The notes under the pieces are model-generated. The model was not told the DNA's origin and did no database searches. It was given only the letters and a program-made list of their open reading frames with translations. A stretch of DNA of 64,000 nt from Amoebophrya sp. A120 (lineage: Eukaryota; Protista; Dinoflagellata), in contig CAJINV010000004.1 in assembly GCA_905178155.1 (NCBI GenBank), forward strand, positions 9,834,625-9,898,624. The letters run 5' to 3'. This document shows, piece after piece, positions 196-64,000 of the stretch. How positions within the stretch are numbered: the stretch's first letter is position 1; each line of letters starts with the position of its first letter. A program made the position numbers and the translations under genes.

Positions 196-2996
196 CTGGA
201 CGGCAGACAAAGAGTTGGACTACGCCATGGGCTTTTCCCTGCGGAAGCTTGACGAGACAGAGGAAGGGAACAACAGTATGACGCGGTTGGAAAACCGCCC
301 CTTCAAGCAGTTTTTGAATGTCAAGCAGGACGTGGTGAAGCGGGACCTGCAAGCGGAGATCGAACGGGAAAAGCGGCAACCACAGATGGCAATGTCCCGA
401 ACAAATATGTTGGTGAATAGTAAACAGCGGTCCTCGACGGCGCTGAGTTACGATGCGAATGGTGCCAGCACACAACAACCGTCGCAAAGCGCGCCAGTGA
501 CGCCGCGGAAAAATTCTAACGGTGGACAGGACCAAGAAATAAACCAGCAGCAAACGTCCACCTTCGGCGCTGAGTTTGGTGCAGCGAAGTCGTCTGCTTC
601 GGTGGTTCGTGACTTGTATAATTCGCGCCGTAGTTGTGTGACGCCGAAGGTGAATACCAGGAAATCCCGGGCGGACCTGTGGAAACCCTTCCTGCCTACA
701 TCTACTACTGCAGCTAGCACCGCAGGGAGTGGGACGATTACAGGGCTAACTCCCGCGGAGGGCGCGGCTGCAAAAAGATCGGCTTCCTACACAACTAGCA
801 CTGCTGTTGCTGCGACCTCGGTGGTGGAACATCAGAAGGATGGCTCGACACATATGCAAGCCACATCACCTCGTGCTGCTGCTGCTCTTGAAGATGCTGA
901 TTTATTAAAAGCCACTCCCCGTCGGCAGCTGTCGCTCCAAACTGTAGTCCAGAACCTGCACACTGCGGTTCGAAGCGCCTCGGCGCGCAAACGACCGTTG
1001 ACGACCAAGACGGTAAAACCGAAAAACCTTCCGAACTTCACCGTGAACGATCACTACAGGCAAGCGGGTCCGTTTTCGAGCAGTTATCGGGCGGCCTTCG
1101 GCGTGCCCCGGCTCGACGTGTTGGGGAGGGGGCAGGAGGGCGGGGGAGTAAAACAAGGCGCTATTTATTTTACCCCTCGCGGTGGTTTATCTTCGAGTTG
1201 TACGCCGGGCAATATAATTCACGACAATAATTCTACGATATCTGCCCGGGCAAGAAGAGCACTTCAGGAGGACCTGTTATGAACTGCAAAAGCATCGTAC
1301 TTGTATAAATGCATTACAAATTTTCTCAGCATGAAAAATAAAATTTGTAATGCGGATTTACCTTAAGACAAAGATTTGTAATGCTAGACTTGCATTTATA
1401 CGAGTACGATACTTTTGCACGGGATACCTGTTGCTGCAGGACGAAAAGGTCGTGGGTCCGCCGGCCGTATCCTGTGCAAAAGTATCGTACTCGTATGGAA
1501 ATCATGCATTACAAATCCCTTTGTTAAGGTAAATCAGCATTACAAATTTTATTTCTCATGCTGAGGAAATTTGTAATGCATTTATACGAGTACGATACTT
1601 TTGCAGTTCATAGGCCGGCCGCATTGGCGGAAGCAGGGACCTGCACCGAGGGTACTATAACAGTGAGCAACCGATGAACCTCTGCGATTGGGGCGTGCCG
1701 AAGCAGCTGCTGAACTCGCTTCTTGCTTCGAGCAGTGCAGCTGGTACGGACAAGGACAACAGCAACATCTCCCGGCCCGCCTCGGCAAGGAACTCTAATA
1801 CAGGAAAAAATATAATCGCCGGCACAGCAGCTGACGCAAACAACAATACCTCTGCGCTATCGACACCCCGCACGACGTCGCCCCGCACCCAGAACAAAGC
1901 CATTCTAAAAACCGCGAGTGAGCTCTTGGGCCAGGAAGCGAGGGCGGAGCAGAGACGGAAATTGTCCGCGCGGCAGAAGGCCGCCCGGGCGCTGCAGGGA
2001 TACAGCGATATTAATGGCGAGGAGGATGTCTCCGAAGTTGCACTGTGTAAAACATCAAATAAACGAGATAAGATCTTCCGTTCGCCGCCGAACTTCAAGG
2101 ACGAGGTCGCGGAAAACCTGTACAAGTTTCAGCATCACGAAACGCCCTCCGAGTCGCTGCACGAGTTTTATTCCGGGGTGCCCACCACCCCAACCTCCGC
2201 CCTGATAGTAAAACAGCGCGCCGAGTCGGCTCCGCCGGTAAATCTAGTTGAAAATAACGACGAGAAAACAAGATCTGATCTCGTTGGAGTAGTACCAGAG
2301 CGAGGCCATGGCCAACCACAGCAGTCCACAGAGAGGCTCGAAGATGAACAGAGAAAAAACGACATCAAAAGGCTGAAAGTCCTGCACAAGCGACACCACG
2401 CGCACCTGCACCAGGTCGGCGGGAATTCGTATCACTACATGCGGAAGGGCAAGAACAATAATTTGAACTTCAAGCACCCGCTGATCACGCCCTACGCGCC
2501 GACCAAGGAGCTGACCCCGCGGTGGGACCGCGACAACCAAAACCGGGTTTTTGTCCCGTACCGAAACGTCCTGCCTGCAGGGGAGAGACTGCCGTCGAGC
2601 CCGAAATTCAAGGACAAAACGGTGGTCGGCACGGCGCACGGCAAGCAAATCCTGGTTTCCTCCCAAATTCGGCGCGTTCCAGCGGAGCCGATCCGGACGC
2701 CGCGCACGGTGTTCACGCCGCGGCGGGAGGAGGACGTGGCGAAGGACGCGCAAAAAGTGGCGACGCGCGAGCGGCTGGTGCTGACGCGGTCCAGGTTCGT
2801 GCACACGCCTAGGATCAGCGACAAGCAGGAGGAGGAGCGAAAGGAATTTTTCGCGAAGCTGCTGAAGAACAAGGAGAGCGACCTGATCGCGCGGAAGAAG
2901 ACACGACGGGTGGCCCTGGCGCACTTGCCGGGGCTGTCTGGTGTCACGGAAACCAGCCACAAGGCGTACGCGGAAATGATCGCGAAAGAGAAGTAG
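196..2996 (+). CDS. Hypothetical low-complexity protein, 5'-partial; coding segments ~196-1277, 1432-1467, 1618-2996 (one DR copy retained per junction)
   Basis: ORFs 215..1282 and 1674..2996 join in frame (...QEDL-LLQDEKVVGPPA-GRIGGSRDLHRGYYNSEQPMNL...) once elements 1278-1426 and 1468-1612 plus one DR copy each are removed. No recognisable domain. Confidence 0.75.
1278..1426. mobile_element. Introner family A
   Basis: TIR TATnnnnTGCAAAAG(T/C)ATCGTAC; DR CCTGT/CCTGT. Confidence 0.92.
1468..1612. mobile_element. Introner family A, opposite orientation to 1278-1426
   Basis: DR GGCCG/GGCCG. Confidence 0.92.
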
Positions 2997-4171: not shown

Positions 4172-7100
4172 ATGTCGAACTCCGAGGCCGAGCGTTGGAA
4201 GATCGAGGCAAATGAGCACCTGAAGAAAAATGAGCTCACCGAGGCGATCCTATGCAGGGCAACAGTTTTATCTTAGTCTTTTATACAGACGTGCAGGTGC
4301 AGCAGGAGAAGAGCCCAGCAGGACAAACTTCTGTAGAGAGTTTGTTCGGGAGGGCAATGCGTGAAGATTTCATCAACCATTGCATTTCAGGAGCGAAAGC
4401 TTCGCATATATTTTTGAAATGAGGAATGAAATTGATATGACGGAATGAAATTGATATGACGAGGATGACACCACCTGAGATATTGAAAAGTCGTGCGAAG
4501 ACTCCTCACTGTTCCTGTTCAAGAAAACCGTTTGCGCAGGATACGTTCAAAAATACAACAAGGCCATCACGCTAGACAACCAGAACCCGGTCTATTACAG
4601 CAACCGTTCCGCCGCCTGGGTATTCACTGCAAAAGTATCGTAATCGTATAAATGCATTACAAATCTCCGCAGCATGAGAAATAAAATTTGTAATGCGGAT
4701 TTAACTTAAAGAAAAGATTTGTCATGCATGACTGCAACACGAGTACGATACTTTTGCACAGGATACTGGGCGGCACAGAGTAAGTTCGAAAACGCGCTGA
4801 ATGATGCGGAAAAATGCCTGCAGATCGACCCGAAGTTCATCAAGGGATTTTCACGCATATCCGCAGGAAATTTTACCGTACATCTCCGCGGAATCGAACC
4901 AGTATCAAGCGGCGACCATGCATGACAAAGCAAAGCTGCTTCCTGTTGCCTAGTTTAGTTTTTCTGCATGATCGCAGTTCCTTGCATGCTTATGTTTTCG
5001 GTTTTTGCAAATCAAAACCTGCGTTGCAAACATGTGACACGGACGCCGTTGACGTTGTACTGATAGCCGTACAATGAATTTATTACGGTAAATGTGTGTT
5101 GCATAACGCAAAGGGCTCGCACTGTTTAAGCTTGGAAAAGTAAAGGAGGCGACGGAAGCCTACCGGGCGGGACTCATCTATGCATTGCAAAAGCATCATG
5201 TTCATGATCGTACTAGTATAATATTGAGACACATGACAAATTTTTCAAGAAGGAAAGCTTGAATTTGTGATGCAGATTGAGGTAGAAAATTAGATCTGCC
5301 ATGTTGCAAGACTGGTCGTTAACATTTTAATTAAGTATACGAGTGCGATTACTTCTTTGCTTTTGCACAGGATATCAGCTTGGACCCAACCAATGTCGCG
5401 CTACAGCAATCCATGGCGGCAATCACGAGGTCACAGAAGGGCAGTAGCGGGGACGGAATCCAGGGCTACTTGGCAAGCGTGGGACAGAAGCTGATGAACT
5501 CAGGCGGTATCATGATTTTTGGATGTCAGCTACTTCCACAGCTTCCATTCTGACCCTGAGCAAGTAGAGGGAGGCGATGACAGACAAATAACTTCCAGTT
5601 CCTTCTTTACCGTGTTGGTGCTTATCAGCTGCTTCTTTATCATCATTGTAGTTTCGCATCCTGTTCATGGCGCGCATTTTCAATCATGAAACAAACCGCA
5701 TAAAAACAAGAAGTATGTGACTATTTACGGCCGCTTCACCACAATGTCAGGTCTCGGCAAAGTGGTTATGTATGCAGTGGTTCTTTTTGGCTACTGGCTC
5801 TACATGCGTTTTACCCGGTCCGGCAAGACCGACGGGGACAACGCGCTGCCCGAGAAGCCGAAAGACCCCACCGCGCTCCAGCATGGCATGGTGTCCCTCG
5901 CACGAGACAAGGCCGTCCACATCGCGAAGCGTTCCGCGATCGTCCCAGCAGTTGTTTCTCCGCCTGCTTCATCTTCCCCCGGAGCTGCGCACCAGCACGC
6001 AAGCGAAGCGGAAGGCGAGGACACACAAGTGACCACGGACAGCAAGGCCGCCACGTCGGTGGTGCTGTTTTTCCACGCAACCGGCTTGTCTGGAGAGGAA
6101 CACGCCCACGTGGTCGCGAAATTCGAGAAAAGCTATCCTGTGCAGAAGCATCGTACTCGTATAAATGCATTACAAATTCCCTCAGCATGAGCAATAAGAT
6201 TTGTCCTGCGGATTTACCTTAGGAAGAAAATTTGTAATGCATGACTGCAATTACTACGCTACGAGTACGATACTTTTGCACAGGATAAAAGCAACGTGCT
6301 CTTGATAGACCTTCCCTGTCACGGGCGCAGCACGTGCTGGTTGTTATGGAAAAGAAAAACCGTGTTACGTGTAGGAGGTGTCTTGTGGAGGTGACCACAG
6401 CATGACAAATTCGCTCTGTATGACTCCTCTTCTTCAGAAAAAGCCTCTCATGTGCAGCTTCTACGAGTACGACGCCAAAGCGCATATGACATAAGAGGGC
6501 TTCCTGACTGGCCAGCATAACAAGTGTTGCATGCTTCGCATGTTTATACAAAGTTACACGACCACTATGATCTACAGTTTTTTTCTTGCATAGCTGCCTT
6601 CGGGCGACGACTGGGAAGAGCTCGGAAAAAAAATCGTCGGCGCAGATGCAACCTTGTTTCCCGAGGGCGTGCCAAAGACGCTGGTATTATGTTTTTCTTT
6701 TTTTACAAATTTTGTGGAGATGTACTCATCAATTTGGTTTGATTTTTGCTCACGCTAGCGGTCTTCTCACTGAACAATATTTATGATATCGGTTGCCGCT
6801 GTCGCTCGTGCTACCTAGTAGCGCTCCACCTAATAAGTACTACGCCGACAAGAACTTGGTGTCTTAGAACATCAGTATCAATGCTGCTCTACCAGGTCTT
6901 GTCCGGCTATTCGCCTTTCCTCACGCGTGGCATGTTTGACGCTTTCATGCCTGACTACGTGGTTTGGACAGGGCCAAACGAACTCTTTTCCAACAAGGAC
7001 ATCAACACCGTCGAGGACCTATCCTGTGCAAAAGTCTCGTACTCGTATAATTGCAGTCATGCATTACAAATCTTTCTATTACGGTCAATCCGCATTACAA

Positions 7101-8708
7101 GTTTTATTTCTCATGCTGAGGAAATTTGTAATGCATTTATACGTCGAGTGCGATACTTTTGCAGTTCATAGGACCTGAAATCCAAACTTCTCAGCGACGA
7201 GTCGACCTCAAAGAAGCACAATGAAGTAGGTCGCGAAAAAGCCTTCAACAAACTGCCAATAGGAATATTGCGCGATGCTACAATGCACATGGCGCATGGT
7301 AAGTTTTGTCTTCGAGGAAGCGATGTTTTTTTTTTTGGGACCATGTCGTGTGTTGGGTGACGAATGCTACTGAATACGCATGCTCATAGTCTCGTTGCGC
7401 ATTCACTTAGTACCTGGATTTAGAAGTAGCACGAGCTGCAAGTCAAGTTATTTACGTTAGGTCGAACAGGGGACGGGTTGCGAGTCCCTGTGCGCATGCA
7501 GCTTGTATATCGAAGTGCGCTACATCATGCCAAAAATAAATCTTATCACAGACAAGCGTCCACAATACACACTAGAGCGCAACGTGACCGAGCTGATCCT
7601 TCAGGAGGTCATCGTGTCTCCGACCCTTGTGTTGTCAAGTGAAAAACCGGAGTTAGACAAAGAGAAATATTAAACCGTAATCCATTCTTCTTCACCATAG
7701 GGGCGAGAGGGATCTAAGTACCTCGTGGTCGTCGTGTGGCTTGTGTCATCTTGCTGCACTAGTAGAGGACTAGCACAACATCGAGGATCTTTTTCTTCTT
7801 TGTTGCACTTTTCTTCTACTTGCGCTTCCCTGCCTATGAACTAGGTCAGGCTCAAGTATGTAGGTGATGGTGAAGGACACCGGTATTAAAAGTTCTTTGT
7901 CCCTTTTCATACACGAAGTTCACCAGTCTTAACAAGAAGATCGAGGCGAAGCAGCACCCGTGGGAACTCGTAAAATCTGAAAAATGGTTGAGCACCGTGC
8001 AGTACCCACTGAAAGAAAAAAAAGGGCCGTACTCGTCGTACTTCTTGCATTGTTGCATGACAGATTTCTCTTTCCGCACACTTTTCGTGCGGTTGCGGAG
8101 AAGGAAAGATATTATTTTGTATATGCAAGAGCATGTTGAGCAACTCCAAGTTTGCACGACAAGTATAATGCGCCAAGGTACTTTTTCGTTGCATATGCCA
8201 CAGTGGCTCGAGGAACAGGCGGATGCGGCGGGACAGCATACTATGGAGGTGTCGGCCTTGAAATCGACAAAGTCGAACAAATGATTTGTGACGCACAAGA
8301 AAATCAAAATGTTGACCACAATAAATTTCTAAGCAGCGCATGAAAAATTATCTCGATGCCTTGCTCTGTTCGGTATCGGTGCAATAAACGGGGCTGCTCG
8401 TGGCACATGCTCATCTTTGGCACCACTCGCATTCTTCCTCCTAATTCGGCTTGTTGTTGGCACCTGGCATCACTTGCCTGCTGTCCAATACAAGCATTCT
8501 GTGGGTGCAGCCAAGCACGCATGTCAGATCATTTTAATTTATGAACAAATTGGGCGATTTCATCGGGCCTGACGCTTCCATACAAGAAACTCAGGAGGAA
8601 GCAGACCACGCACCAGCAGCGGAGCCCGCAACAGGATCAATGCCTGACGAGGACCTCCAAGCTGATGACGGCAGTACGAAGGCCGGGGGCGGTGCGGACG
8701 AGTTTTAG
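4172..8708 (+). CDS. Multi-exon gene: N-terminal STI1/SGT-like TPR domain, transmembrane helix, alpha/beta-hydrolase-like domain, C-terminus ...GGGADEF*
   Basis: Spliced translation: MSNSEAERWKIEANEHLKKNELTEA..KYNKAITLDNQNPVYYSNRSAAWAAQSKFENALNDAEKCLQIDPKFIKGFSRKGLALFKLGKVKEATEAYRAGL (3 TPRs); TM segment VVMYAVVLFGYWLY; VVLFFHATG...NVLLIDLPCHGRS; TLVLSGYSPF; HPWELV..WL. Canonical GT-AG intron at 5507-5750. Exons between 7230 and 7930 are uncertain. Confidence 0.7.
4251..4543. mobile_element. Degenerate introner-like non-canonical intron
   Basis: TATGCA...GCAGGATA ends with an eroded DR; must be removed to join the TPR1 helices. Confidence 0.55.
4621..4765. mobile_element. Introner family A
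   Basis: DR CTGGG/CTGGG. Confidence 0.92.
4858..5105. mobile_element. Introner family F (diverged)
   Basis: TATCCGCAGGAAATTTTACCGTA...TACGGTAAATGTGTGTTGCATA; DR ACGCA/ACGCA. Confidence 0.85.
5179..5374. mobile_element. Introner family A (diverged)
   Basis: DR TCATC/TCAGC. Confidence 0.85.
6134..6287. mobile_element. Introner family A
   Basis: DR AAAGC/AAAGC; removal gives FEKS-NVLLIDLPCHGRS. Confidence 0.92.
6345..6592. mobile_element. Degenerate introner, family E-like
   Basis: Right end CAGTTTTTTTCTTGCATA matches the end of 14712-14925; DR GTTGT/GCTGC; frame restored. Confidence 0.6.
7020..7170. mobile_element. Introner family A
   Basis: DR GGACC/GGACC. Confidence 0.92.
8003..8195. mobile_element. 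Degenerate introner, family A-like
   Basis: TAC...GTACTCGT...GTACTTTTTCGTTGCATA; DR TGCAG/TGCCA. Confidence 0.55.
8242..8582. mobile_element. Introner family D (diverged)
   Basis: TATGGAGGTGTCGG...GAAATCGACAAAGT / CCTGACGCTTCCATA; DR CATAC/CAAGA. Confidence 0.75.
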
Positions 8709-9897: not shown

Positions 9898-12800
9898 ATG
9901 CGGAGTGCGGTCAACGAGAAATCGCTTTACCCAGGTGGGAGGGCCGCGTTGTCGACACCGCTTCGTTTTTTCGTGTGGTGCGGCCTCCAGTTTATTTGCC
10001 TGCAGCAGGTGGCGACCCCCGTGGTGGCTTTGGTTTTGGACGACGATATACCAATCACCCGCTCCCTACAAACCAGCCTCCAAGTTTTGCAAAGGAAATT
10101 GCAAATGTTTCGAGATGCGATGGTGGCGGTGCGAGGCCGCGACGGCGTCCAAATCAATGAGAAGGACCTGGACTCAGTCACGGACATCCGCTGGCTCCCT
10201 CCGGAGCACAAAGCGTTCTGGTATTCGCGCTATGCCGAGTTGAAGGCCGAATTCTGCCAAGTGCGGAGTACCAGAGCGACGTCGACATCAGGTGTTTTTC
10301 CTGCAGCAGGAGTAGGAGCTTCGTCGTCAATTTATCGCAAACAGACCCTTCCCCTGGACGCAAGCGTGCATATGTGCGAGTGGCAGCGGAGGGGGCAAAG
10401 GACTTGGGGTGACGGCCTCTCCGGGGAGGACCAACTAACTAATAGCCCTGACTCTGGCGACGAGCTCACTTTTAGTATCAAAGATGAAGAAGACCACAAA
10501 AGCAAAACCAATACAACTCCGCGGGCCGCTTGTGCACCTGATTTGTGCCGCGCGCTGGCAGAGTCCTGGAAACTGTGTCACGCGTTTCGAAGAAACGTCT
10601 ACCCTTACGTCGGAGCGAGCCTGTATGGATGTGTCAGAGTTGAAATCGACAAAGTTGAAATAATTTGTCATGCATAAAATGGATGCCAGTTGGAACCCAG
10701 TTTCCAAGTGGCGCATGACAAATTTCGGTGGTCCCTAAATCCAGTTTGTCATGCTGTTTAGGCAAAGAAGAGCGACTTTCTCATGCTACTTTAGCAGCTC
10801 GAGCTGTAACCCCAAGCAGGCTTACAATCGGCCTCACTTGCCTGCTCTGCCATACACGTGGCTCGGGTCATGCATTTTATGCATCACAAACTATTTCAAC
10901 TTTGACGATTTCAGTCCTGACGCTTCCATAGCCTGCTGCCCAACAAGGGGCACGAAAAGATGGTGTTCACGGCGGCGCGGCGAAGTCAAGTATGCAATGC
11001 AAAAGTATGGTACTAGTATGAATTGCATGACAAATTTTTCCTAGAAGAAAAATGAAATGTGTCATGAAGATTCAGGTAAAGAAAGCAGATCTGTAATGCT
11101 AGACTCGCACGAGACTCGAATAGCTTCGCCCGCTGGGTGTGACGTCGCAAACTTGCGCTAGAAGGAACATTTTTCAGAAAGTTCACCTCCCGCTGCGGGA
11201 CGCGCACGTTTTGCGTATCACCTGGGAACAACGCTGTTGCGTCTCGCGCCGCATCCCCCCGCGGCCTAGTGGATGCCTTTTCAAAGCATGTCGAGCCGGA
11301 AACGCGGCTAGAGACGCCTTCGCAGTGCGTTGCTGGTTGGAAATCTAGCAAGCGACGCCGTCTCAGTGCATTTCTAGCCGGAAACCCACCTAGCGACGCC
11401 GCCTCAGGGCGTTTCTAGCTAGAAAGCCAGCTAGCGACGCCGCCCCGGTGTGTGTCCAGCAGGGAATCCAGCTAGCAATGCCGTCTCAGCACCTTTCTAG
11501 CTGAAAGGATGGAAATACAGCCGGAAAGGCAGCGGCAGCGTGTTTCCGGCTAGAGATCCAGGTGGAAAGGCATCGCCAGCGCGTTCCCAGAACGAAATCC
11601 AGCGGGAGAGGCATCGCCAAAGCGCCCCCGGCTGGAAGAAATTCAGCCGGCCGCGTCTTTGCGGAGTATTTCTAGCGTGAAATGGAGCCGGGGACGCCTT
11701 TTCAGAGCATTCCTAGCGGGAAACCCAGACGGAGGCGCGTTTTTTTCTAGCCGGGAGGAAATCCAGCAGGGAGGCAGTGCATTACTTAAAGAGGCATCCG
11801 CAAGCAACGCGCCTCCAGCTGGAAATCCTTCGAGGGCGCCGCTTCGAAGAGTATCCAGCTGAAGACGCCGCGGCAATGGAAATCCAGCTTGCTGGAAACG
11901 CCTTTTCGAGGGAAATCCAGACGGAAACGCATCGAGAAGGCTTTTTCAGCGCTTTCCCGCCCGACCTTTTCAAACAAAGTGGCTGCAGCTGGATTTCTAG
12001 TAGAAGACGGCTTTCGATTTCTAGCTTTGATTCCAGTTGTGGGGAACATTTTGAAAAGGCATCCGCGGCGCATTGTTAGCTGGGATTCCAGGTCAAGGCG
12101 CCTCAAGGTGTTGCCAGGTGGATAGATTTGCGGGCGGAGATGCCTCGGGGCATTTCCAGGCGTCAAGAATCGCAAGGCAGCCGATTTCTCTTTGATTTTC
12201 CGGGGTTTCTTCCCGCGTTAGCAAAACTCTGCTGGCTACCCGGGGAAAGGTTTGCCTAGAAGGATACTGGGTAGGTATTGGGAAGCTATCGGGAAGGGGT
12301 GGCAGAGCTGAAGCTCTTCTCGGGCTGTTGTGCTTAGCGCGGCTCTTCAGGCTACCCGGGGCAAGGATCTTCTAGTAGGGTCGCGGGAGGGTGTTCATTG
12401 GGATAGTGGAAATGTATTGGGGATTTGTTTTTTTTATTTTTTCCCGAGTTGCTGTGTTTAGCACAGCTATTCTGCCTACCCGGGGCATGGGTTTTCTAGT
12501 AGAATGCTGGGAAGGTATTGATGGAGGCGTCCATCTGCGCCATCGTTGCACGCCTTCCAGGTGCAGCGTCCGTGGCTGCGGTTGCCGCCTTCCGTCTCCG
12601 TCGGCTGCTCGCGATGTCTCCGTGCGCGCGATCAGCTGAAGCTTTTTTTCCTTAGGGATTTCAGTAAGAAAGTGACACGCGATCGCGCGGATCCGAGTGA
12701 CCCCCTACGACACCCCCCCCGCCCTTTCGAGCGATATGATGACACTGCGCCCCAATCCGTATGTTGAATAGTTTTTGTTTTTAAGATGAGGACTTAGATG

Positions 12801-26000: not shown

Positions 26001-26890
26001 GCCCTGTTCGGGTTCACTTTAGCCTGGGAAAAATTTCTACCATGTGCAAAAGTATCGTACTCGTACTAATTGCAAATATGCATGACAAATGTTTTTCTCA
26101 AGGTAAAACAGCATTACAAATTGCATTTGTCTTGCTGAGCTAATTTGCCATGCAATTTATACTAGTACGATGCTTTTGCAATTCATATTTTCCGAAGGTA
26201 GTTGTGAAAACCGTGAACCAGGCAGAGACGTCCCGAGCCAAGAAAAATGGGGTGGTCGCGGGGGATTTTCTGGTAAACTTTTCCGGGGAGAAGATCAGCA
26301 ACGTGAAGCTGACTCTGGAGAAATACAGAAACGCGAAAAGTCCGGAAGAAGCGATCGTGCAAAAGGTGCAGAGGGCATTGGAACGATTGAAAAGATCGGG
26401 AAATTACGGCAAGGAAAATCTGACCGGATTTGTGTTTCTAAGGAAAAAGTACGCGAGTCAGTACCTGCAACTTCGGGTAAAAGTACCAAACGAAGTTGTA
26501 GGCGAAGATGAGTCAACAGCTGCTGGAAGTAGAACAGCGGAAAGAAGTCTCGGGTTTCAAGTGGTGTCCTACAAGTCAAACTCTCTCGAGATGGAGATTT
26601 TGCAGGTCGGCAAAGTGCTGGACCGCGATGCTGGTAAGCCAGACTCCTTTGCGGTGAGCAACAAGCTGCAGCAAAAAGACGTTTTGGTTTGTTTTAACGA
26701 AAAATCGCTGCTGAGCGGGGCCGTGGACAAAGATGCGTTCTGGGAACTGGTTTCGGACGAGAGCAAAAATCCTTCCGAAGCGATGAACACAGCACCGAAC
26801 AACGAGATTTTGCTCCGACGATGTTTGCCAGAAGGCTGGCCGCAGGACCAAATTGATGCGGAAACGGAGCGGCTAAGGGTGCAGATGTGA
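20011..26890 (+). CDS. Large protein with low-complexity N-terminus, coiled coil and a duplicated C-terminal module of PDZ-like domains; start codon uncertain (frame open from 19876)
   Basis: ORFs 19876, 23128, 24531 and 26150 join across 4 elements. Two copies of LAG..KLPL.KWGFAGWYQSSID...FPKV.V..V.....A.KNG.V.GDFLV.FSGEKI...LGF.V.SYKSNSLEMEILQVGK; the A.K.G+..GD.L+..+G pattern is PDZ-like. Confidence 0.7.
22934..23108. mobile_element. Introner family F (diverged, reverse orientation)
   Basis: GTACGGGAATAAATTTG near the right end; DR GCTTT/CCTGT; joins DAALL-LSRNHLDE. Confidence 0.75.
24439..24591. mobile_element. Introner family A
   Basis: DR TTTTG/TCTTG. Confidence 0.9.
25653..25965. mobile_element. 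Introner family D
   Basis: DR ACGAC/ACGAC. Confidence 0.92.
26038..26187. mobile_element. Introner family A (TAC start)
   Basis: DR ATTTC/TTTTC. Confidence 0.88.
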
Positions 26891-39490: not shown

Positions 39491-40082
39491 GTTGCCGATA
39501 TCTACTAAATAGGGCTTGTCTGTCTATGCAAAGTACTCTGCGATAGTAGTTTTGGTGTGTTGCTTGCGCCTCATATTTCGCAATGTCATTCGTGATACAA
39601 TTGAGCGATCGGATATACCCACTAGCAGCTCCCCATGTACAACTTTCTTCTATCTTTGTGAAAAGAAGGGTATTACGAGTCGACGATGGCACCACGTTTT
39701 TACTCACCTATGTTACATTTAAGTTTGTCCCTTGACCGAGTTCCTGTTGTCTTCGGGTTCGGCATTGATTTCGGCATAGCAGTCCTTGTCATTTGGCCTA
39801 GACAACAAGGAGAAATCTTTAAGTCAATATTAGGAGGTAACGAATTTCTCGATTCGGTATCTGTATCTGTAAGCGCCAAACATCAACACGATGAGCGAAC
39901 CGCCCTGGATTAGTCCATCCTCCTCTCCGTCGGTGCTGGTTTCTGGAGCATAGAAGCCACCGGAGCGCTCGCAACCGCATCTCCCGTCGAGGTCGAGTCG
40001 GAGTCAAGGCAAAGCGTTTTCTTCTCCTGATTCATCCACCCCAGGAGCCACGTAGCCTCTCCGAGAAACACCTCAGCCCGCC

Positions 40083-50300: not shown

Positions 50301-52469
50301 ATGCTGCGGAAATTTGTCATGCATTTATACGAGTACGATACTTTTGCAGTTCATAATTCCTACAAGGAGACGACCTTGCGTCAGTACGAAGACATGAACG
50401 AACGGCTGAAAAAGCCCCCGGCGTTCAGTAGAATGGATTATCCCACAGAAAAAAGCTGGCAGGGCATATTTGTAATGCAAAAATAAGAATAAGTACACAG
50501 AAATGAAAAATCTATCATGGGCGGCCTCATAGCATGCTATTTAGGATATGCAATAGTGCAAATTTTTTTGTCTATTTATTTTTGCATTACAAATATGACC
50601 TGCCAGTTTTTTTCTGTGTGATATGGATCAGGAGTTACTCGGAGGAGCGGGAGCGAGTACAAGAACTGGGGAGCCACGACCAAGTGCGGCAACAAAACAG
50701 ACGAAGAGAAACAACACGACCTGCAGAGGAAGGGACCCTGCTCATGCTGTGCGACAGATCAGTAGCAGTTCCTCTTTGTTCATCGGAGCACCATCGGCTT
50801 TTGGTTCATCTGGATTCTTCGTGGGACGTCTTCCGACACCGATGCAGCGAGGAAGAGCACTCGCGTCGAGTTCCTCATTTTCTAATAACGTGCTGCAGGA
50901 GCAGCCACAACCGATTTTTCACGACATACGGAGCAGCGGCCAGAGTATCATGTCAGCGCCCTCTTTATTTTCCGGTTCCTCAACCATCGATGATGAATGC
51001 TCTCAGACGAGCACCAACTCCGACTACAGGATGCTGGCCAACCAACCGACTCCTGACCCTCAGCAGGAGAACATGAAAAAAACCCTCGCGGAGCGGCTGA
51101 GGCGGTTGCGCAAAAAGCAAAAACAGCTGCCAGCAACGCGGGGATCGCAGCAATTTCAGTTCGAGGTCAAGCAGCTGCAGCGAGCGGCACTGCTCCGGCC
51201 GAGCGGGGGTTCTTCGGGTTGTACTACTAGGGATCTCGCCGGAATGAAATCCCGGCAGCCGGAAGATGAGAGACAGGTGTTTGATAACTCCTTGTGTGGC
51301 GGGACTGCGAATGGAGGGATCATTCCAGGTCATAATTATCCGGGAATGTTGCCGTACGCGCAGCAGCAAGCACTTGCTTTTTCGCAAGGTGGTTTCTACA
51401 CGACCCCGGACGGTCGGATCATTTCCCCGGCCGAGGTGCAGCGAATACAACAGATGGCGCGCGTCCAAGGCGGATTACTACAGCAGAGTGGCACAGGTGC
51501 CCAGCAATATTTCTTACCCGGCGGCGTACTAGGAGCTGCAACTTCGTCGACTACCTTCTCCAAGAACGCCAACAAAAAGCCGCTGACCGCGAAAGAAAAA
51601 TCGTCCCAGATTTGGCACCGGAAAATGAAATTACGGCGGACCAAGATCTACCAGTACCTGGCAGGCAAACCCGCGAGTCGCGAGGAAAAGCTGCAATTAG
51701 CGGACAACAAAAGTCAGAAGACCCGTCCGAAGCCGAAAAACTGCACGAAGAAGCACCTACTGTACCACCCGCAACCCGCGTTGGATTTGATGCGGTATCA
51801 ACTGCAAAAATGTCTGGGTCTGGAAGGATGCAACTTGTGATGCTGCATTTGGATGTCAAAAAAATCTGTATTGTATGAGCAGCAAAAGGATTCTAATTTT
51901 TCCTCCCGGAGAGGGCATTTGTCATGCGGAATAGGCATCAAGAAGACCTCAGAAAATCTGTGATGCTAGGGCATGCATCACAGACTACATCATGGCTCAT
52001 GCAAAACGTGCATGACAAGTCTCAGAATCTTCCAGACCCAGACATATTTGCAATGCATATGCGGAATCTCTGTGCAACAGCCAACCCGCTGGACGCGAGT
52101 TTGCTGGAACGCGCGGATGTCTGGGGGGAGCATGCGGACTGGGCGGCCGTAGAGGAGTGGGAACAGAGGCAGCAGGAGGTGGAGGAGAGCGGAGTATTGG
52201 ACGACGGTCGTACTGTAGCTGTCAAGATGAACAACTACATGGCTCCTGCGAATAACGCTACGAACCATATAGAAGCTTTTGATGGGAAGCTGCAAATGCA
52301 AATCAGTCGCAACATGTTGGTGGAGCAACAGCGGTCCACCTCCTCCGTCGTCGCAACTTCCTCGCGGGTGGATCTTCGGCAGGAAAATGGGATGTCTCTC
52401 TGCTCGTCCCACTCCTCGTCGGAGGTCGGTGGGAGCGTCGGCTTTGAGAAAATGGACGTGGATTCGTAG
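47378..52469 (+). CDS. Hypothetical protein; possible PH-like segment (RSYYWFPANSEQEMLECFELAI)
   Basis: ORFs 47378, 50623 and 51924 join in frame across elements 48993-50127, 50210-50355, 50439-50623 and 51796-52059. The PH resemblance is weak. Confidence 0.65.
48993..50127. mobile_element. Family B introner expanded to 1.1 kb by nested insertion(s)
   Basis: B-type TIRs; DR CCGGA/CCGGA; frame restored (AAR-TRSYYWF). Confidence 0.88.
49406..49976. mobile_element. hAT-like MITE nested in the introner
   Basis: TIR TAGCAtccGGCCACCTCGTACTT / AAGTACGAGGTGGCCccgTGCTA; 8-bp flanks GCAATGCT/ACAATGCC; internal AAGTCAATTGACTT palindromes. Confidence 0.7.
50210..50355. mobile_element. Introner family A
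   Basis: DR ATTCC/ATTCC. Confidence 0.92.
50439..50623. mobile_element. Introner family I
   Basis: ~48-bp TIR TATCCCACAGAAAAAAGCTGGCAGGGCATATTTGTAATGCAAAAATAA; DR TGGAT/TGGAT. Confidence 0.9.
51796..52059. mobile_element. Introner family B
   Basis: DR TGCGG/TGCGG. Confidence 0.92.
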
Positions 52470-53322: not shown

Positions 53323-55875
53323 ATGTCTGTAACAGCGCCAACTCTACTTTTTACAACGTCGTCTGCGGGAGCCGCTACGGCTCCCATAGACATGGCCGGC
53401 CAAGATGTGGAAATGGCGACGCCTGAAGAGAATAAACAAGTCCCGGCAGGAAAAAATGAAATCTCCAACCCGAACGCCACAATCCCCCTTTTCATTTCTG
53501 AATTCCACGACGAGGCTCTTCGCGGACTACACTTTGCCATGCGCAAGAAACGACTCAAATGCGACAACCCCATCCTCCTGGTTCACTTCGACTCGCACCC
53601 GGATTTGGCCGTGTCGCAGGATTTGACCGCGGACCTGTGTCGGACGCCGGAGCAGCGGGAGATGGTGCACCGGAGAGCTGCTGCAGTTGGAGGAGGTCCA
53701 GATGGGGTGAATGAGCAGGATGACGCGACACTACCAGAGGAACAGCAAACTGACGTCCGCGATCTTTACACGGCCCTCCGCACGATTGAGGGCGGGATCG
53801 CCAGCTGGATCCTGCCCGCGGTCTTTGCCGGCATGATCGACGAAATCTGGTGGTTGAAGCAGCCGTTCTGCCGACAGATTCCGGAGGGGATCTACCAGGG
53901 AAGGGTGGGTGGTGCGACGAAAAGCAGTGCGTCGTCGTGTGTCGGTCCTGAGACTCGTGAAGAAGATCATGATGGGAAAAGAACGGACGAAAAGCAGCAA
54001 GAAGTACTGAAAGTGGATGGAGATTTTGCTGATTTGTGGTACTACGAAGGGGACGAGAAAGTCCAGAGACCAAAAGTACCGAAACCTGATTCTGAACCGT
54101 CTGTAGGAGTCGTACACGACATCAAAGACGAGGACACCCTCTCCGTTGACGCGAAACATTGGACGCTCGCTGTTCTGGAACGCCCGCAGGCAATTGCGCT
54201 CGCGGACCAACTGCAGCCTGCAGCTGTTGGGAGTGCTGACAAGCAGCCGCCGGTTCTTGTCAATCCTGCAGGAGAAATCCTAGCGAACGAAAATGCCGCA
54301 GAGTTACCTTCCGCCCCGGCCAGAAAGGAGTGGGCCCTGGACATCGACCTCGATTATTTCACGACCCGGAATCCCTTTACCATGGGGTTATCGGATGAAT
54401 TAGTCCAAACGCTGCAAGACGCGATCGATATCTGGGAGCACGCGTACCCGGAGAAAGACTTTCCGTTTGACACCACCTGGGCAGACGAGCTGGAGAACGA
54501 GAATTGGGAAAAATGCATGGAAATTCTGTTCCCGTACTTAGTTGAGCTCGAAACACAGCCACCCTTTTGCGCCGTACTGCCCGGCCTTTTCTTGTTCACA
54601 GATGGAGACCCTGGCAATAGTTCACCAGAACGCTTGCCGCGAAGCGACCTGGTTCGCCACGCCACCGCAATGAAAAACGCTTTGTTAGACTGGAAACGGC
54701 TCCGCCCCAGCACCGCAGAAATGGCGGTTTTGCTCGAAGCTGGACACATGCTCACACTGCCGCAGAACGTGCCATGTGATCGGCCTGGAGATCAAGGCAA
54801 AAACGAAGGGGATTTTTTTCGTCCGAAGGTAAAGGAAATCGAGGATCTTTTGCGGAGCATCATGCTCTCTGGTGCGACGAAAATGGACAACCAAGGTCAA
54901 GACCAGCAACGAGCGGCTGGAGTTCCGTCGAGTGAAAAGCATCTTCCTGGTCTTCCTATTCCCAACGCAGTAGAACCTGCACCGCAAGAACTACTCGAAG
55001 ATCACCCCATAATTTCGTCACCTCCAAGACTTCCGACAATCTTTTCCAGCGACACACCAAAGGACTACCAGACCTACTCGCATATTCGCACCACTCCCGT
55101 CGGGTTTCCAACGAAGCCGCAGCGGTTGTTGGCTGAGGCGAGGAAGTTAGGAACGCCGTCAAACCTGCAGCCGTATCCCTCGGTGATAACGATCGCACGG
55201 ATATCAAATGCAAATATGTCTGGGTCTGGAAGATTCTGAGACCACTTGTCATGCTAGTTTGGCATGACTCTAAACTCTGTATTGCGTGCCCGCGAAAAGG
55301 TGGTCTTGTCTGTCATGCAAAAACGTGGTTTCTCATGCGGAGTACGCAACTCAGAAGCACCAAAAAACTTGTCATGCTGGGGAGTGCACCACAGTGTGCT
55401 CACTATTGCTTTCCTTGCATCACAGGTTTCCAGACCCAAACATTTTTGCAGTTGATAACGGAGCTGCTCCGACAACTTCCTGCCGATGCGAATCTCGGCG
55501 CAGCTGGAAACCGCAGTGATTGAAATGTTGGAGCGAGTATGAAATGCAAAAATGTCTGGGTCTGGAAACTTGTGATGCTAAAATGTGCATGATGAAAACA
55601 CTTCCGAATGCAGTCCGGCATGACAACTTCCCAAAACGCTTTCTCATAGGCAATCCGCATGAGAAACTGCGATTTTGCATGACAAAAGAGGCTGCGACTT
55701 TTGTTCGTTATGCAATACAGATTTTCTAGGTATGGAGAGCTAGCATTACAAGTCCCAACCTTCCAGACCCAGACACTTTTGCAATCCATAACGAGTGTAT
55801 GGTGACGGTGGGGATAGTGTTGTCCCCGGCGGGGGCAAGAAAATTGAGCGGATGTATGCGGACGAGCTGCAGTAG
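53323..55875 (+). CDS. UPF0489 (C5orf22-like) family protein
   Basis: Motifs LVHFDSHPDL, IASWILPAVFAG, LDIDLDYFTTRNPF. After removing two elements the frame reads ITIARSCSDNFLP...ETAVIEMLERVY, with stop at 55873-55875. Confidence 0.85.
55202..55457. mobile_element. Introner family B
   Basis: DR ACGGA/ACGGA; splits ITIAR-S. Confidence 0.92.
55538..55790. mobile_element. Introner family B, opposite orientation to 55202-55457
   Basis: DR GCGAG/ACGAG. Confidence 0.92.
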
Positions 55876-56578: not shown

Positions 56579-59500
56579 ATGCCGGGCAAGAACACCGTCG
56601 ACCGCAAGAAGAAGCGGGAGAACGTCCGCCATTTCCGGGTGGTGCAGAAACCCATTCTGGATGACAACGACGAGCAGAAGAATTACCTCGAGCCGTACCT
56701 CCCGATCAACGTGCGGAAAAACAAAAAACTAGACGAAGAAGAGGAGGAAAAACTTTTGTACAAGCCAATCAAAGGAGTCGATCTCGATGCGAAAAAGATT
56801 TTCGGTCTGGAGCAAGAGGACTGCTCCGAGGAGGAAAACGAGGATGACGAACAACACCAGCCGAAAAACAAGCGGCTGAATCAGGTTTTCAACAGCAAAA
56901 CCGAAGGCTACATCCGCGGCGCAGACTACGATTCCGATGAGGAATTGCTAAATGAGGAAGTTGCGGAGGAGGAAACCTACTTTCCCAACGATGGGTACGA
57001 CTACAACCAGCACTTGCGGGTCATGGACGAGCGGTTCGTGCAGAAGGCGGAGCAGCCGGTGACCACCCGCGCGGAGAAAATCGCGAGCAAGGTGAGTGCC
57101 AATTTGCCGGTGCAGTTGGTGCAGACCATGGAGGGCATGAAGGCGCCCATCGAAGAGGTGAAGCAGAAGTTGCAAAAGTCGGACAAGATCGACATTATGG
57201 AATTGCGAGACGCCGATACCGGCGAAACCGCGGGGACTGTCCAGGAACTGACAAAGCCCGTGACGTTTCGGGACGAATTCGATTCGAGGGTTGCCGCGGC
57301 GGAAGAGGTATAGAAGATACATGAGATACAACATCTGAAATCAGTTTTGATTTTTCGCTTTGTCCACTTTCACTTTCTCCTTTACCTTTTTGGAGCGCCA
57401 GCATAACCAAGACAATATTGAAGGTCCTCGTAATTGCCATGAGCAGAAATAATTATCGTGACGTTCTGTATCTGTTCCCAAACGACGTATCCTCAGCTTC
57501 CCGCCGACGTCCTAGAGGCTCTGGAGATGGACTACGAGGAAATTCTATCAAATGTAAAAATGTCTGGGTCTGGAAGAATGCAAGATTTGTCATGCATATT
57601 TTTCATCACCCATGATGCCTGTAATGCTTGGCCTAGCATCGCAGACTTTTAGAGGGTTTCCTGATGCACCTTCCGCATGAGAAATGCCCTGTCCGTGTAG
57701 CAAAATCTGTGCCCCTCTTGCTGGTCATGCTATACAAAACTTTTTTAGAGTCCAAAAACAGCATGACAAGTTGCAATCTTCCAGACCCAGACATTTTTGC
57801 AGTTCATAAATTCCCGAAGAAGCCGAGGGAGACGCTTTCCAGGAGTGGGACGACTTTTTCCACGTGGCCGGCGGCGTGGAGGACAAGCTGACCCAGCTGT
57901 GGGGCCAGGAGGGCGCGGAATTCGCGAAAATGGAGCGCGTGCGTCGGGGGGTCGGGATTTTGAATCTGCGTGCGGGGGAAAGTTTGTTCGGAAATACTAA
58001 CAAAACGAGTTGTGCTGACGGCGAGCAGTCCGACGAGGAGGAGTCGGATAATTCTGACGAAGACGACTCCGACTCCGACGGAACTTCCGATGAAGCCGAC
58101 CAGGACGAAGATGCAGAAGAAGACCTCGACCCGGAACTTGCGAAGCTCTACGCCGACGTGGACAAGCTGGATGACCAGCGACTCACGGCGAAGGAAACGC
58201 TGACAGAATTCCGCTTGCGGCAGATGCTCGAGGAGGGCTACGACGACACGAATCTCGGCGAATTGGACCCGGAGGAGGTGTATGCACTGCAAAAATGTCT
58301 GGGTCTGGAAGGTTGATGGAACTTATCATGCTAAATCTGAAGCATACAAACATCTGTGTTGCATGATTCCCAAACGCTGCCCAATTTTGATCAAGTTGAG
58401 AGGCAGTTTCTCATGCAGGACAGGCATGATAGGGATCTCACGGAATCTCATGCTAGGTCCTCCATTACAGATCATATGGGTCATGGAAAGCCTGCATGAC
58501 AAGTCTAGCATCTCACGGAATCTGTCATGCTAGGTCCTCCATTACAGATCATATGGGTCATGGAAAACCTGCATGACAAGTCTAGCAAAGTTCCAGACCC
58601 AGACATACTTGCATTTGATAAGGTGAATGGGGAGAAGGAGATGGAGGAATTCGACGACATTTTGGATGAGTATTTGGAGGAAAATATCCTGAGTAAAAAC
58701 GTACCCACACCATAGTCAAGATGGGGAATCGGCTAGACAAATCCACAAGCTTTGGCTGTTTTGCATGACAAATTTGGATTCGTAGTGTGATCCTGTTTCG
58801 CTAGCTCAGAAGCATTACAGATCTAGCCTACCATACTGATTCTAGCATCACAAATTCCAAAACACGAATAGAAAATGCTTCTCATAGGGCTCCGCATGAG
58901 AAACTTTTTTGGCATGCAGAATTGCGTGACAACTCTGGGGTGGGTACGTTTTTACATAGGATAGAAAAAGCGACCGTGAAGCGGTTCTGGCAGCAGGAGA
59001 TGCTGACGCTAAACCCCGGGAAGAAAAACAACTCCGCCAACAACCAATTTAGGGCCATGGTGGCCGGCACGAGCGACGACTGCTGTATAAGAACTACTGG
59101 TGCTGGTGTTCACGATGTTCTTGATGAAATAGACCCAGCAGGAGCCGAAGTAGACCAGATGAACCTAGTTCCTGCTGTATTGTGAGGAAAAATGTCCCCA
59201 CCCCATAGTCGAGATGGGAAGTCTGCAACACAAACCCGGAAGTTTTGGGAGTCACGCATGACAAGTTGCCCTCTGTATTGTAGTGCAGTTTCGCAAGGAC
59301 ATCCGCATCACAAAGCCAGCTTCTCATCCTATTTGCAGCATCACAAATTCCAAAACACGACTGGAAATGGCTCTCATGGGGATGCGCATTACAAGTCTTC
59401 CTGTCTTCGCATATCTGCATTACAACTCTGGGGTGGGGACGTTTTTACTCAGGATATGCTGCGCCGGGCGGGAAGTTTGACATTGACCAAAGCACCGGCC

Positions 59501-60598
59501 GTATCCTCTGCAAAAGTATCGTACTCGTACTAATTGCGTTTATGCATTACAAATTTTTTCGTGAAGGCAAATCCGCATTACAAATCCAATTTGTAATCCT
59601 AAGTGACTTTGTAATGCAATTTATACTAGTACGATAGGATACTTTTGCAGTTCATAGGCCGACGGGTGATCATGAAGGAGCAGTTTTCGCTAGAAGACCC
59701 ATTGGAGAAAGGCTTCCGAGATTCGAAGAAATCCAAGCGCATGAAAACGGTGGAGGGGAAGACCAGGCTCGGGCCAGGATTATTGGACTGTGTAGAGGAC
59801 TATGAGGAAGCTGGGAGGGTAAGTAAAACTGATGTGGTCGTTGTTGAGCAGGAGGACAAAAACGCAGCATCTGCTTCGTCTGACACCGAAGAGGCTGATG
59901 TTCCTGCGACGGAACATAGGCCAGACGCGTTGACAGAGAACCAAGGCCAAGAACACGATCACCAGTGCTCCTTCTACGAGAAGCCGACAAAGGACATTAT
60001 TCTCGCGCGGGTAGAGAAGATGGCGATGGAGGAAAAGGACGAGCCCGAGACGGAGGACGAAACAAACAAAAAAGTTCTCAAGCTTCTCGGGTACAAGGAA
60101 AAAACCGGTGTGGAATTCGATTGCGAAACGATTTTATCCACGCGGTCAAACCTCTCCAACCACCCGGGGAAAATTCTGGTTCAGTCGAGTAAGGCGAAAA
60201 AGAAACAGGCGAAAAAGAACGGGTTGCTGAGTGCAAGTGGGGCGGGTGGAGGTGGTGGTTCTCTTTTGGGCGACATTGCTGAGGAGGACGAGGAACAGAC
60301 GACAGATGATGAGGAGGACGAGGACTCAGACGCGGATAGCAACGCAGGAGACAACTCGTCCGATGCAGAGGAGGACGAGGAATTGCAGATTGTGGAGATT
60401 CCCGACAGAAAGAAAGGCGAGACGAAGGAGGAGAAGAAAGCGAGAAAACAAGCCGTGAAGCAAGCGCGGAAATTGTGTCGACAAACGAAAAAGGAAAACA
60501 CGGCTCTGTTTGCGCAGGAGGCGGCGAAACGGAAAAGAGAGAAAAAAACTGCGACAACCGGAGATGTGCGCCAGGGAGCGAGGGTCTTTGCGATTTAA
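56579..60598 (+). CDS. LTV1: LTV1 40S ribosome biogenesis factor homolog
   Basis: Motifs YFPNDGYDYNQHLR, DCETILSTRSNLSNHPGKI and RKKGETKEEKKARKQAVK. One canonical intron (57308-57496) and 5 introners. Confidence 0.85.
57546..57808. mobile_element. Introner family B
   Basis: DR AATTC/AATTC. Confidence 0.92.
58281..58620. mobile_element. Introner family B with an internal ~75-bp tandem duplication
   Basis: DR AGGTG/AGGTG. Confidence 0.92.
58685..58963. mobile_element. Introner family J
   Basis: TATCCTGAGTAAAAACGTACCCAC / GTGGGTACGTTTTTACATAGGATA; DR GAAAA/GAAAA. Confidence 0.92.
59178..59456. mobile_element. Introner family J
   Basis: DR TGCTG/TGCTG. Confidence 0.92.
59502..59656. mobile_element. 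Introner family A
   Basis: DR GGCCG/GGCCG. Confidence 0.92.
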
Positions 60599-61339: not shown

Positions 61340-64000
61340 ATGGCCTTCCACAAAACCGCTCCCGGTTTCCTCGAGGTCCAGGAGGTGCCCACTTTCGACC
61401 GGAAAAACGTAAAAGTCCCGAAAACCTCCGTCGTGCGCTCGCATGAAGTCCAAAAGTGGATCCAGAAGCGCCGGGGTGCACTGGCCAAGCAGAAAGCCGG
61501 AGCAGGTTCCAGCTCGAGCTCCTCTTCTTCCAGCACTCCCTTCGGCAATAAACAAGCTTCCCCGGACAAGAAAAACCTCCAGGCCGGCGAGGAGGGCTTT
61601 CTCCGGTTGCTCTGGAAGACCATCGACTACGACGGAAATGAGTACATCGACGCGGACGAACTGGAGCTCATTGTCGGCGCGATGCGGTTGTGCTTCTACT
61701 CTGTTTTCTATTTCGGCGAAACGTCCGACCGCCAGCGGTACCGGACGGTGCGCGCGCGGCAGCAGCTCCAGTCGCAGGGCGGAATTCTAGGGGGCGCGGG
61801 CAACGAGGCGAAGATGCTCGGTTTTTCCTCCAACGTGCCGCTGTTTCTCGGCAAGGACAAGGTTGGCACCATGAAGGACATGCTGGGGGCCACCCACGCG
61901 CAGCAGACCACCGGCGCGACCATGTTCGACGCGGCGAGCGTGTTGATGCAGCAGGAGGGCAGCAAGCCGGCGGGCGGGCTGAAGAGCAGCGGGTTTGCGA
62001 AGTTCCGGAAAGCCGCGGCCGGGGGTGCTGGTAATGATGCGAACAACAATGGCTCATCCCCGAACGGCAGGTCGTCCACCGTTTCCCTAGACGGGATGGG
62101 CACTTCTTTCTCCACCGCGATGAACGAAAAAGAATTGACGCCAACCACCTTAGTACCCGAAAACGCCACGGCCATCAAGGAGCCGCTCGACCCGCTGCCG
62201 GACGACGCGGCGATGGAGAGTCTGCAGCGGAGGCTCGACACGATTGAGATCCGCTTGTCCGACAAGGAAATTGCGGCGAAAAACGCCCACGCGCGGAAGT
62301 TCCGGGGGGAGTTCGAGGGCATGCTGGACGACATCAACGACGGGGTGTCGTTTCTAGCGGACAAGGCCGATTTGGGCGAGGACTACCAGACTGAGTTGTC
62401 CAACCAACAAGTCCAACGCTACGAGGACAGCGGCGCGGGGTTGGTGGACGAGCTGCACCAGAAAATCACCTCGGAGGAGAGGATCGGGGAGATTTTGAAG
62501 GAGCTCTCCTTTCTACGAATTGCAAAAGTATCGTATTCGTATAAATGCATTACAAATTTCCTCAGCATGAGAAATGAAATTTGTAATGCGGATTTGCTTT
62601 CAGAAAAAAATTTGTAATGCATTATGGCAATACGAGTACGATACTTTTGCACAGGATACTTTCGCGGGTACTGCAACGTGAATGACGACGCGCAGAAGCT
62701 GCAGGACCAATTTATAACCTGCTCTGGTGTTTTTACAATCTCAAACGTTACGTATAGAGTTTGGAAATCTGTGATGCAAGATTGCATGATCTAGCCAAGT
62801 CTCATAGGATTGCGCATGACAAGTTCCGGAGCCCTAAACCCCATGACAATCTGGCGAAATTTGTATTGCAAAAAGTGGAATGCTTTGCGAGTCTTTCATG
62901 CTCATCATGCAACACGACAAATTCCAGATTCTATTGTAACGTTTGGGATTGTAACGTTTGAGCAAGTCATACAATTCCCCGGGTTTTTCGACTCGTTCCT
63001 TAACAACGTGATCCTGCAGTACCGCGGCGAGTCGGAGCTGCAGGCGCCGCACAGCTCGGACGGCGGCACGCAGTTGCTGAAGTCGCACCGAGCCATTTTG
63101 GACGCGGTGGACGACATTCACTTGAAGCTGCAAAAAAAGTCCGGGGAGAAGCCGATCCTGTGGCCGGAGTTTGTGGACATCTTGCGGCCCTTGTGCCGCA
63201 AGGAGATTGACGAGGATTTGATGTACGCGGCGTTACCCTTGCACCTGCTCGTGCAGGACTGTCTCCGGAAAAAGGAGTTTGCGCGGTTGGGCACGGAATA
63301 CAATTTTCGCACGCAGTATCCACAGTAAATTTCCCGTACATCACGTACAAATGCCGTTTCTGCATGGCAAAGCTTCCCTTCGATCCTGTTCAGCATGACA
63401 AGTTGTCTGCGCTAAGTTAGTGAAATTTGTGATGCATCATGTTGTACATGTACGGGAAATTTGTATTGCATACGCAGCAATACGCGGAGGCGTACAAGAT
63501 GAAGTTGAAACGTCCGGTCGATACCGATCTTCGGTCCCGCTCCCCGACGATGAAGACCGGGGAAAACCTCCCGTCGAAGTGGTTCGCCGGGAAGAAGGGT
63601 CAAAGAGTGTCGCAGCTGTCGCCACAGCGGAAATCGCCGGTAAAAGAGTGGGAGAATTACGTCGAGGAGGAGAGAATGGCGAAGTTGTTACGGAAAAAGA
63701 ACAACCGAGAGAATGGTGAGGACGAAGACGAAACGATGATCTCCTCCCCGCCTTTGACCCCGGCGAGCTCGGTGAGACGGTCCCAGTCCCCCTCTTTAGT
63801 CACCACGACCACCGGCACCGCCGCGACCGGGTCGCAGGCGACGCGGAACAGCCAGCGAAACAAGCACGTCCTGCAGACCGCGAACGCCAGCTTGCAGCAT
63901 CAGTTGTCGAGCCACGAGCCGAGCCTGCAGACCACGCTAACCGGGTCAAAAACGACGATCACGTCGGACGAGCAGGACCAGAAAAAGCAAGTGCCGGTGG
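61340..64000 (+). CDS. EF-hand-containing protein, 3'-partial
   Basis: EF loop DYDGNEYIDADE. Frame continues across elements 62514-62658, 62713-62971 and 63317-63472 (LSF-RGYC, DQF-PGFF, RTQ-QYAE). Confidence 0.7.
62514..62658. mobile_element. Introner family A (TAC start)
   Basis: DR CTTTC/CTTTC. Confidence 0.92.
62713..62971. mobile_element. Introner family H-related
   Basis: TATAACCTGCTC..TTACAATCTCAAACGTTAC / GTAACGTTTGGGATTGTAACGTTTGAGCAAGTCATA; DR CAATT/CAATT. Confidence 0.88.
63317..63472. mobile_element. Introner family F
   Basis: DR CGCAG/CGCAG. Confidence 0.92.

Follow-up and report, generated by a model that had tools for sequence, protein, structure and literature searches.

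A regularly spaced internal word shared across families of spliced mobile elements in Amoebophrya sp. A120, a candidate site for a common mobilising protein

Introners of the dinoflagellate Amoebophrya sp. A120 are described in the texts of two papers (PMC7789003, PMC12130899) as elements with inverted repeats made of TAT, seven loose bases and a run of A's, bordered by direct repeats of 3-5 nt and spliced with mostly non-GT-AG ends; the supplement text of PMC12130899 lists families of about 106, 149, 252-260, 278 and 305 bp. In the text of the genome paper on A120, neither a transposase nor a U1 small nuclear RNA (snRNA) was found (PMC7789003), and the spread and splicing of its non-canonical introns, which number in the tens of thousands, is an open question. 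Here we analyse a 64,000-nt stretch of A120 DNA (contig CAJINV010000004.1, positions 9,834,625 to 9,898,624; hereafter the window), whose elements have similar sizes, carry 5-bp duplications and match the published introners in anatomy. The elements themselves are thus already known; what is new is an internal word, YYTGTVATGC, that their families share, together with its spacing of 31-33 bp, and it is to this open question that the motif speaks. Neither word nor spacing is described in the text and supplement text of the two papers, as far as these extend (Fig. 3 and S19-S25 of PMC7789003 could show the motif), and searching the Amoebophrya and Syndiniales introner literature, including for motif strings, found no description of a shared word; PMC12787238 contributed nothing further.

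The elements were first defined without reference to the motif. A finder using only ends and target duplications gave 40 candidates, of which 38 were kept (calls at 24439-26187 and 33992-35062 were dropped); reading the sequence added 13, making 51 elements plus one cut by the window edge (Table 1). They start with TAT and finish with ATA (a few with one change) and are flanked by a 5-bp target duplication, with both copies identical in 33 elements, one mismatch in 13 and more than one in 5; a 6-bp duplication does not fit. The published inverted-repeat form holds throughout except for the A-run, from which families D and M and one end-type found only in the second assembly introduced below depart. 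Taking out an element plus 5 nt restores long plus-strand frames, for example 1,486 codons over ten elements. All ten genes of the window are on the plus strand. A search of Rfam gave no match.

An earlier note on this DNA had proposed that TTTGT(A/C/G)ATGC is shared by otherwise unrelated families and is rare elsewhere. Enrichment, sharing and rarity were all borne out: 100 dinucleotide shuffles gave 0.75 matches on average and never more than 3, whereas the window holds 81 exact ones, every one of them inside an element, and the quoted positions were right to within one base (1311/1344/1375, 10664/10713, 28454/28486, 50469/50584, 58763 and 63426). The middle base is A in 29 copies, C in 40, G in 12 and T in none, and the first two positions also accept C (variants such as TTTCTCATGC), so that YYTGTVATGC is the better description. 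All 139 matches to this wider form lie inside elements, as do 146 of 149 matches to TGTVATGC; elements make up 14,646 of the 64,000 bases, and the other 49 kb, exons and intergenic DNA, contain no strict or YYTGTVATGC match. The motif-blind finder's 38 retained elements account for 65 of the 81 strict matches, the rest lying in the 13 hand-added elements and the edge-cut one. A weight matrix, trained on the elements, finds 15.5 sites per kb within them and 0.26 outside. About a tenth of sites lack the ApT, and the first site is mostly 34-51 bp from the element end.

Other parts of the earlier description need trimming. Several copies in both orientations were said to be carried by all; the relaxed word occurs in both orientations in 35 of the 51, in one orientation in 14 and not at all in two, and a strict copy is absent from 8. 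The size range of 107-340 bp is exceeded by two elements, of 1,135 and 2,696 bp, because of nested inserts. Although interiors barely align between families (best 48 bits), the families are not wholly unrelated, since they have in common the TAT...ATA ends, the 5-bp duplication and, in A and F, seven 13-bp terminal words, found at 87 of the 120 A ends and 62 of the 374 F ends; A and K also have the same site map and align weakly. A reading of the terminal repeat as one more copy of the word suits a few ends and does not fit the family-weighted profile.

Sites tend to come in pairs of fixed spacing. In 7 of 12 family representatives two sites of the same direction are separated by 31-33 bp (permutation p=0.0022), a number that rises to eight families when all members are counted; the spacers are unrelated across families. 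For a second set of elements, a scan for the F-family end pattern returned 171 stretches, 168 of which were kept as loci, all but two from one other assembly; loci L088 and L184, which come from other records and lack the motif, were excluded. Because this second assembly holds the same families, it represents a close relative and not a fully independent test. The finder, which recovers 39 of the 51 elements in the window, called 354 elements there, containing 425 of 590 strict matches; 80 of the other 165 lie near locus ends, and most of 40 uncalled matches that we inspected looked, by eye, like missed elements. Among 19 clusters without a window member, some of them stray F-, J- or H-like copies, 9 carry the 31-33 pair, where 1.6 are expected and none of 5,000 permutations is as high. 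Grouped into ten end-types, the elements carry the pair in at least 40% of members for nine types and in 17% for M. Deletion starts are rarer within direct pairs (42 in 17,511 positions vs 185 in 33,001). Viral contigs scanned for the direct pair gave 29 matches, none element-like and most of them 33-nt repeats resembling coding repeats; the fetched loci contained nothing matching the masked window DNA.

The word is also conserved where its surroundings are not. Over 291 aligned copies, its core diverges from the family majority at 6.1% of positions, against 19.6% at other interior sites, a roughly threefold difference. Copies are balanced between strands (342 vs 351 in 270 elements; strand was called from reading frames, and 144 of 414 elements without a call were left out), and 94 of the 270 elements carry the relaxed word in one orientation only, of either kind. 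In inverted copies the variable base agrees 193 times against 194 expected; base-pairing therefore does not keep it. Together with the spacing held across families, this conservation without pairing supports the earlier note's suggestion that a common sequence-specific factor acts on the word.

Because there is no strand bias, no covariation and no relaxation in introns with canonical ends, and because copies that have lost the exact word are spliced (see below), we read the word as most likely marking double-stranded DNA for a mobilising protein and, less likely, as an intron tag. With a probability of about 0.58, YYTGTVATGC is a double-stranded DNA site bound by a single mobilising protein that the families share, which is probably an integrase-type transposase or a DNA-binding partner of one. 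A dimer or oligomer would bind the paired sites on one helix face (31.5 bp being three turns), gather both element ends and insert them with a 5-bp stagger; families that keep their sites would go on spreading while the remaining sequence drifts, and splicing would rest on the ends. The shared TAT...ATA ends, the 5-bp duplication and the 13-bp ends common to A and F would fit a single enzyme class. A candidate for that class is A120 family 38, for which the text of PMC12130899 gives a 5-bp target-site duplication, TA/TA termini and integrase-like open reading frames.

Several results weigh against a shared mobilising protein. None of the 52 elements lies in the approximately 12.1 kb of intergenic DNA, where 12.8 would be expected (p=4e-7), a distribution that plain cut-and-paste does not explain; a bias towards genes is, according to PMC9860276, common in introners. 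Site orientation relative to the ends varies between families, and sites fill the whole interior. A general 10.5-bp period lacks independent support: periods of 10.5 and 16 bp account for the data equally well, and without the 31-33 peak neither is conspicuous. Pfam searches of 140 open reading frames (three from the window and, from the second assembly, 137 that reach 200 aa or more, with the longest trimmed to 700 aa) returned no match to a transposase or integrase family, and no autonomous copy was found among these frames or the long elements (about 0.5 Mb covered); Farhat et al. argue in their text against mobilisation by a transposase (PMC7789003). Finally, introns with GT or AG have more diverged interiors (p=0.017) but not a more diverged core, which also fits selection after insertion. 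With duplication mismatches as an insertion clock (12 of 291 copies with at least three mismatches left out), the core decays with a slope of 0.017 (0.003-0.030) and the interior with 0.046 (0.005-0.086), intervals that overlap, with a difference that includes zero; a core decaying more slowly than the interior leaves room for such selection. The TAT end shows no measurable decay with age.

That the elements are spliced is seen in transcript contigs from one sample (runs X1-X4 are presumed to be RNA; X2 and X3 skip introns retained in X5). Exact removal of an element plus 5 nt is found for 21 of the 51 elements. In the gene at 4400-8800 it is seen as a joint at all eight elements (one contig each, runs X2 and X3), and for 13 further elements the piece lengths of X2 contigs match exactly, one span including a 189-nt GT-AG intron; the exons at 4400-10990 are outside the X1 and X4 contigs. 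At 8003 and 8242 the duplication is mismatched, so that the joints place the cut unambiguously behind its base 4, and two further joints are consistent with this, which gives a candidate rule: the intron begins one base before TAT and ends four bases after ATA. This N-TAT...ATA-NNNN rule predicts a GT start in 87 and an AG end in 26 of 270 elements. At 5179, 8242 and 45742, mismatches in the right-hand duplication create an AG where the intron is predicted to end, hinting that sites drift toward the canonical form; the AG excess across the 270 elements is small. Among four introns of the window (5507-5750, 6684-6895, 57308-57496 and 7652-7914), three are element-sized GT-AG introns that start G-TAT and one is a GT..AC intron that ends near ATA; they may be aged elements that have lost motif and repeats and are now near-canonical introns. 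Raw RNA runs X9 and X10, under the same species label, contain F- and J-type sequence like that at 43338, 57546 and 58714 in other flanks and no exon of the window, which suggests a diverged relative with the same elements; their matches lie only partly on element ends and give no splice joints.

The best-surviving alternative, which we consider unlikely, is that the word is a signal needed, alone or additionally, for splicing the non-canonical introns: a factor binding pre-mRNA, or DNA during transcription, would recruit the spliceosome in place of the missing U1, and the two orientations would serve either insertion direction. All 51 elements lie in coding frames and none is intergenic, core and TAT are slow to decay, the checked non-GT, non-AG introns (4858, 6345 and 7020) each retain at least two sites, and the five spliced non-element introns, which have no motif site, all begin with GT. 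Against it stand the balanced strands and the many elements with sites in a single orientation. Elements 6345 and 8003 are spliced without a sense-strand TTTGT-type site, as are 8242 without an intact word and 8003 without a strict one, although these last two each have one canonical end. Core divergence does not differ between 68 introns with GT or AG and 97 without (p=0.32), and site density is equal across splice classes. A fixed spacing of 31-33 bp is, moreover, more typical of DNA binding. The earlier note's further claim, that the word marks the element as an intron, is on this evidence neither supported nor refuted; the motif-free non-element introns speak against it and the three checked non-canonical introns in its favour.

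We are more doubtful still that the elements exploit a host chromatin factor which binds or methylates the word, a reading in which V-A-T-G would be the VATB context of AMT1-type enzymes. AMT1-type symmetric adenine methylation marks active genes and linker DNA. According to PMC12695648, VATB is the preferred context of N6-methyladenine (6mA) in Chlamydomonas and early-diverging fungi, with TAT lowest; this lead also draws on a preprint (bioRxiv 10.64898/2026.05.21.726589). In its favour, the variable base is T in just 8 of 1,090 sites and the elements are confined to genes. A T would, however, create a false TAT end, a simpler cause of its avoidance, and TAT is mildly avoided across the whole window; a general host factor should also find sites in host exons and intergenic DNA, which do not contain the word; the sites without ApT do not fit; and the text of PMC12695648 makes no mention of Amoebophrya. 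A combination is conceivable, if improbable: one protein might read the paired word both for mobilisation and for chromatin-level licensing of non-canonical splicing, possibly through VATB adenine methylation. If so, a transposon docking code would have become an intron-definition signal in a lineage without U1.

It is very improbable that the families all go back to a single distant ancestor and that the word is a functionless relic of it: the shared ends and the common site map of A and K fit descent, whereas spacers have become unrecognisable while words and their distance were kept, and the threefold conservation of the core within families largely refutes it. Least probable of all is that inverted copies are kept for pairing in fold-back RNA or single-stranded DNA. 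Structure predictions do put 100 of 207 sites in a duplex with another copy and close 47 of 49 elements by pairing at their ends, but the variable base does not covary, T is excluded though able to pair, and the conserved spacing joins same-direction copies, which are unable to pair.

Some elements have themselves been entered. In six nested inserts, which fall into about four kinds, one end meets the core of a motif copy; they lie at 49108-49347 in the window, at 4072-4311 in locus L102, in F elements of L040, L066 and L101 and in a J element of L070. Those in the window and L102 are 98.75% identical over 240 bp, and several of the core-joined inserts have short-repeat tails or 8-21 bp duplications, as in non-long-terminal-repeat retroelements. 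A plain preference for CATG could explain the joins, since 959 of 1,594 CATG words in elements lie in motif sites. The long F element of the window (48993-50127) carries a second insert with inverted internal repeats (49400-49975), and an A element holds one of about 2.5 kb (11100-13620) made of tandem and low-complexity repeats, partly like L063 and with no long reading frame. Elsewhere in the window, long low-complexity exons (19800-22900 and 32100-33990) are element-free and conserved-looking domains are dense in elements; a GC-rich intergenic stretch at 37700-39500 is unlike its surroundings, matches no fetched locus and has two frames without a Pfam match.

Table 1. Elements of the window, with window coordinates. 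Piece length: removal judged from the lengths of transcript-contig pieces.
Position	Family	Features
1..195	H, cut by window edge	strict motif at 112
1278..1426	A	motifs 1311(-), 1344(+), 1375(+); last two a 31-bp direct pair
1468..1612	A, opposite orientation	
4621..4765	A	spliced, element+5
4858..5105	N	spliced; predicted AT..GC intron
5179..5374	A, diverged	spliced
6134..6287	A	spliced
6345..6592	I, old	sites in single orientation; spliced
7020..7170	A	spliced
8003..8195	I-like, old	no strict motif; spliced, cut fixed after duplication base 4
8242..8582	D, old	lacks YYTGTVATGC; three weak sites; spliced, cut fixed after duplication base 4
10624..10930	D	motifs 10664, 10713, 10745, 10881
10991..13686	A	~2.5 kb nested insert
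14712..14925	I	
16262..16513	F	
22934..23108	K, old	
24439..24591	A	variant sites only
25653..25965	D	two 32-bp direct pairs
26038..26187	A	
28425..28531	G, 107 bp	one 32-bp direct pair (28454, 28486), single orientation
28582..28843	F	
29319..29468	K	
29736..29988	F	
30043..30210	A	
30356..30572	A-type end, diverged	
30937..31175	M	
31245..31393	A	
31483..31733	F	
31795..32101	D	
35190..35343	A	
41846..42110	F	
42434..42606	A	
43160..43424	F	
43476..43790	H	three 32-bp direct pairs
44838..45100	F	piece length
45162..45312	A	piece length
45380..45642	F	piece length
45742..45895	A	piece length
48993..50127	F	nested inserts, one joined at motif core; piece length
50210..50355	A	piece length
50439..50623	I3	motif within long terminal repeat (50469, 50584); piece length
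51796..52059	F	piece length
55202..55457	F	
55538..55790	F, opposite orientation	
57546..57808	F	piece length
58281..58620	F	internal duplication; piece length
58685..58963	J	piece length
59178..59456	J	three direct pairs; piece length
59502..59656	A	piece length
62514..62658	A	
62713..62971	M	
63317..63472	K ('F' in the earlier note)	motif 63426

One conserved word at fixed spacing across families argues for a single trans-acting protein serving them all. It provides a precise bait for such a protein and an equally precise target for mutation, and it allows elements of this type, along with their autonomous partner, to be sought whatever their family; the splice joints add the candidate rule for where these introns are cut.

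Among known systems, the non-conventional introns of Euglena resemble the window elements: according to the abstract of PMC12501133, it is pairs of terminal words, each at a set distance from the exon border, that define splicing. Their words are others, and that abstract describes no internal repeated motif. Strand specificity and a greater need at weak splice sites, as in RNA splicing enhancers, are not seen here (342 vs 351 copies; p=0.32), whereas an ApT in VATB context, as in AMT1-type sites, is (T in 8 of 1,090). IS3EU/GingerRoot elements (PMC10045372) share TA..TA termini, and an integrase-type transposase has been suggested for A120 family 38. IS3EU/GingerRoot duplications are usually 6 bp, and because those of the window elements are 5 bp we do not file them there; the 140 reading frames searched showed no IS3-like DDE transposase. 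A precedent for the word lies in the subterminal sites of hAT (Herves, Ac, Tol2, Tag1) and piggyBac/piggyBat transposons, described in the texts of PMC3143072 and PMC11707139 as a short degenerate word repeated within the terminal repeats of both ends. Like these, YYTGTVATGC is repeated and conserved inside the ends of mobile copies. The elements that carry it differ in being spliced and in their ends and duplication length, and the word itself differs in being spread through the interior and common to ten or more families with different terminal repeats.

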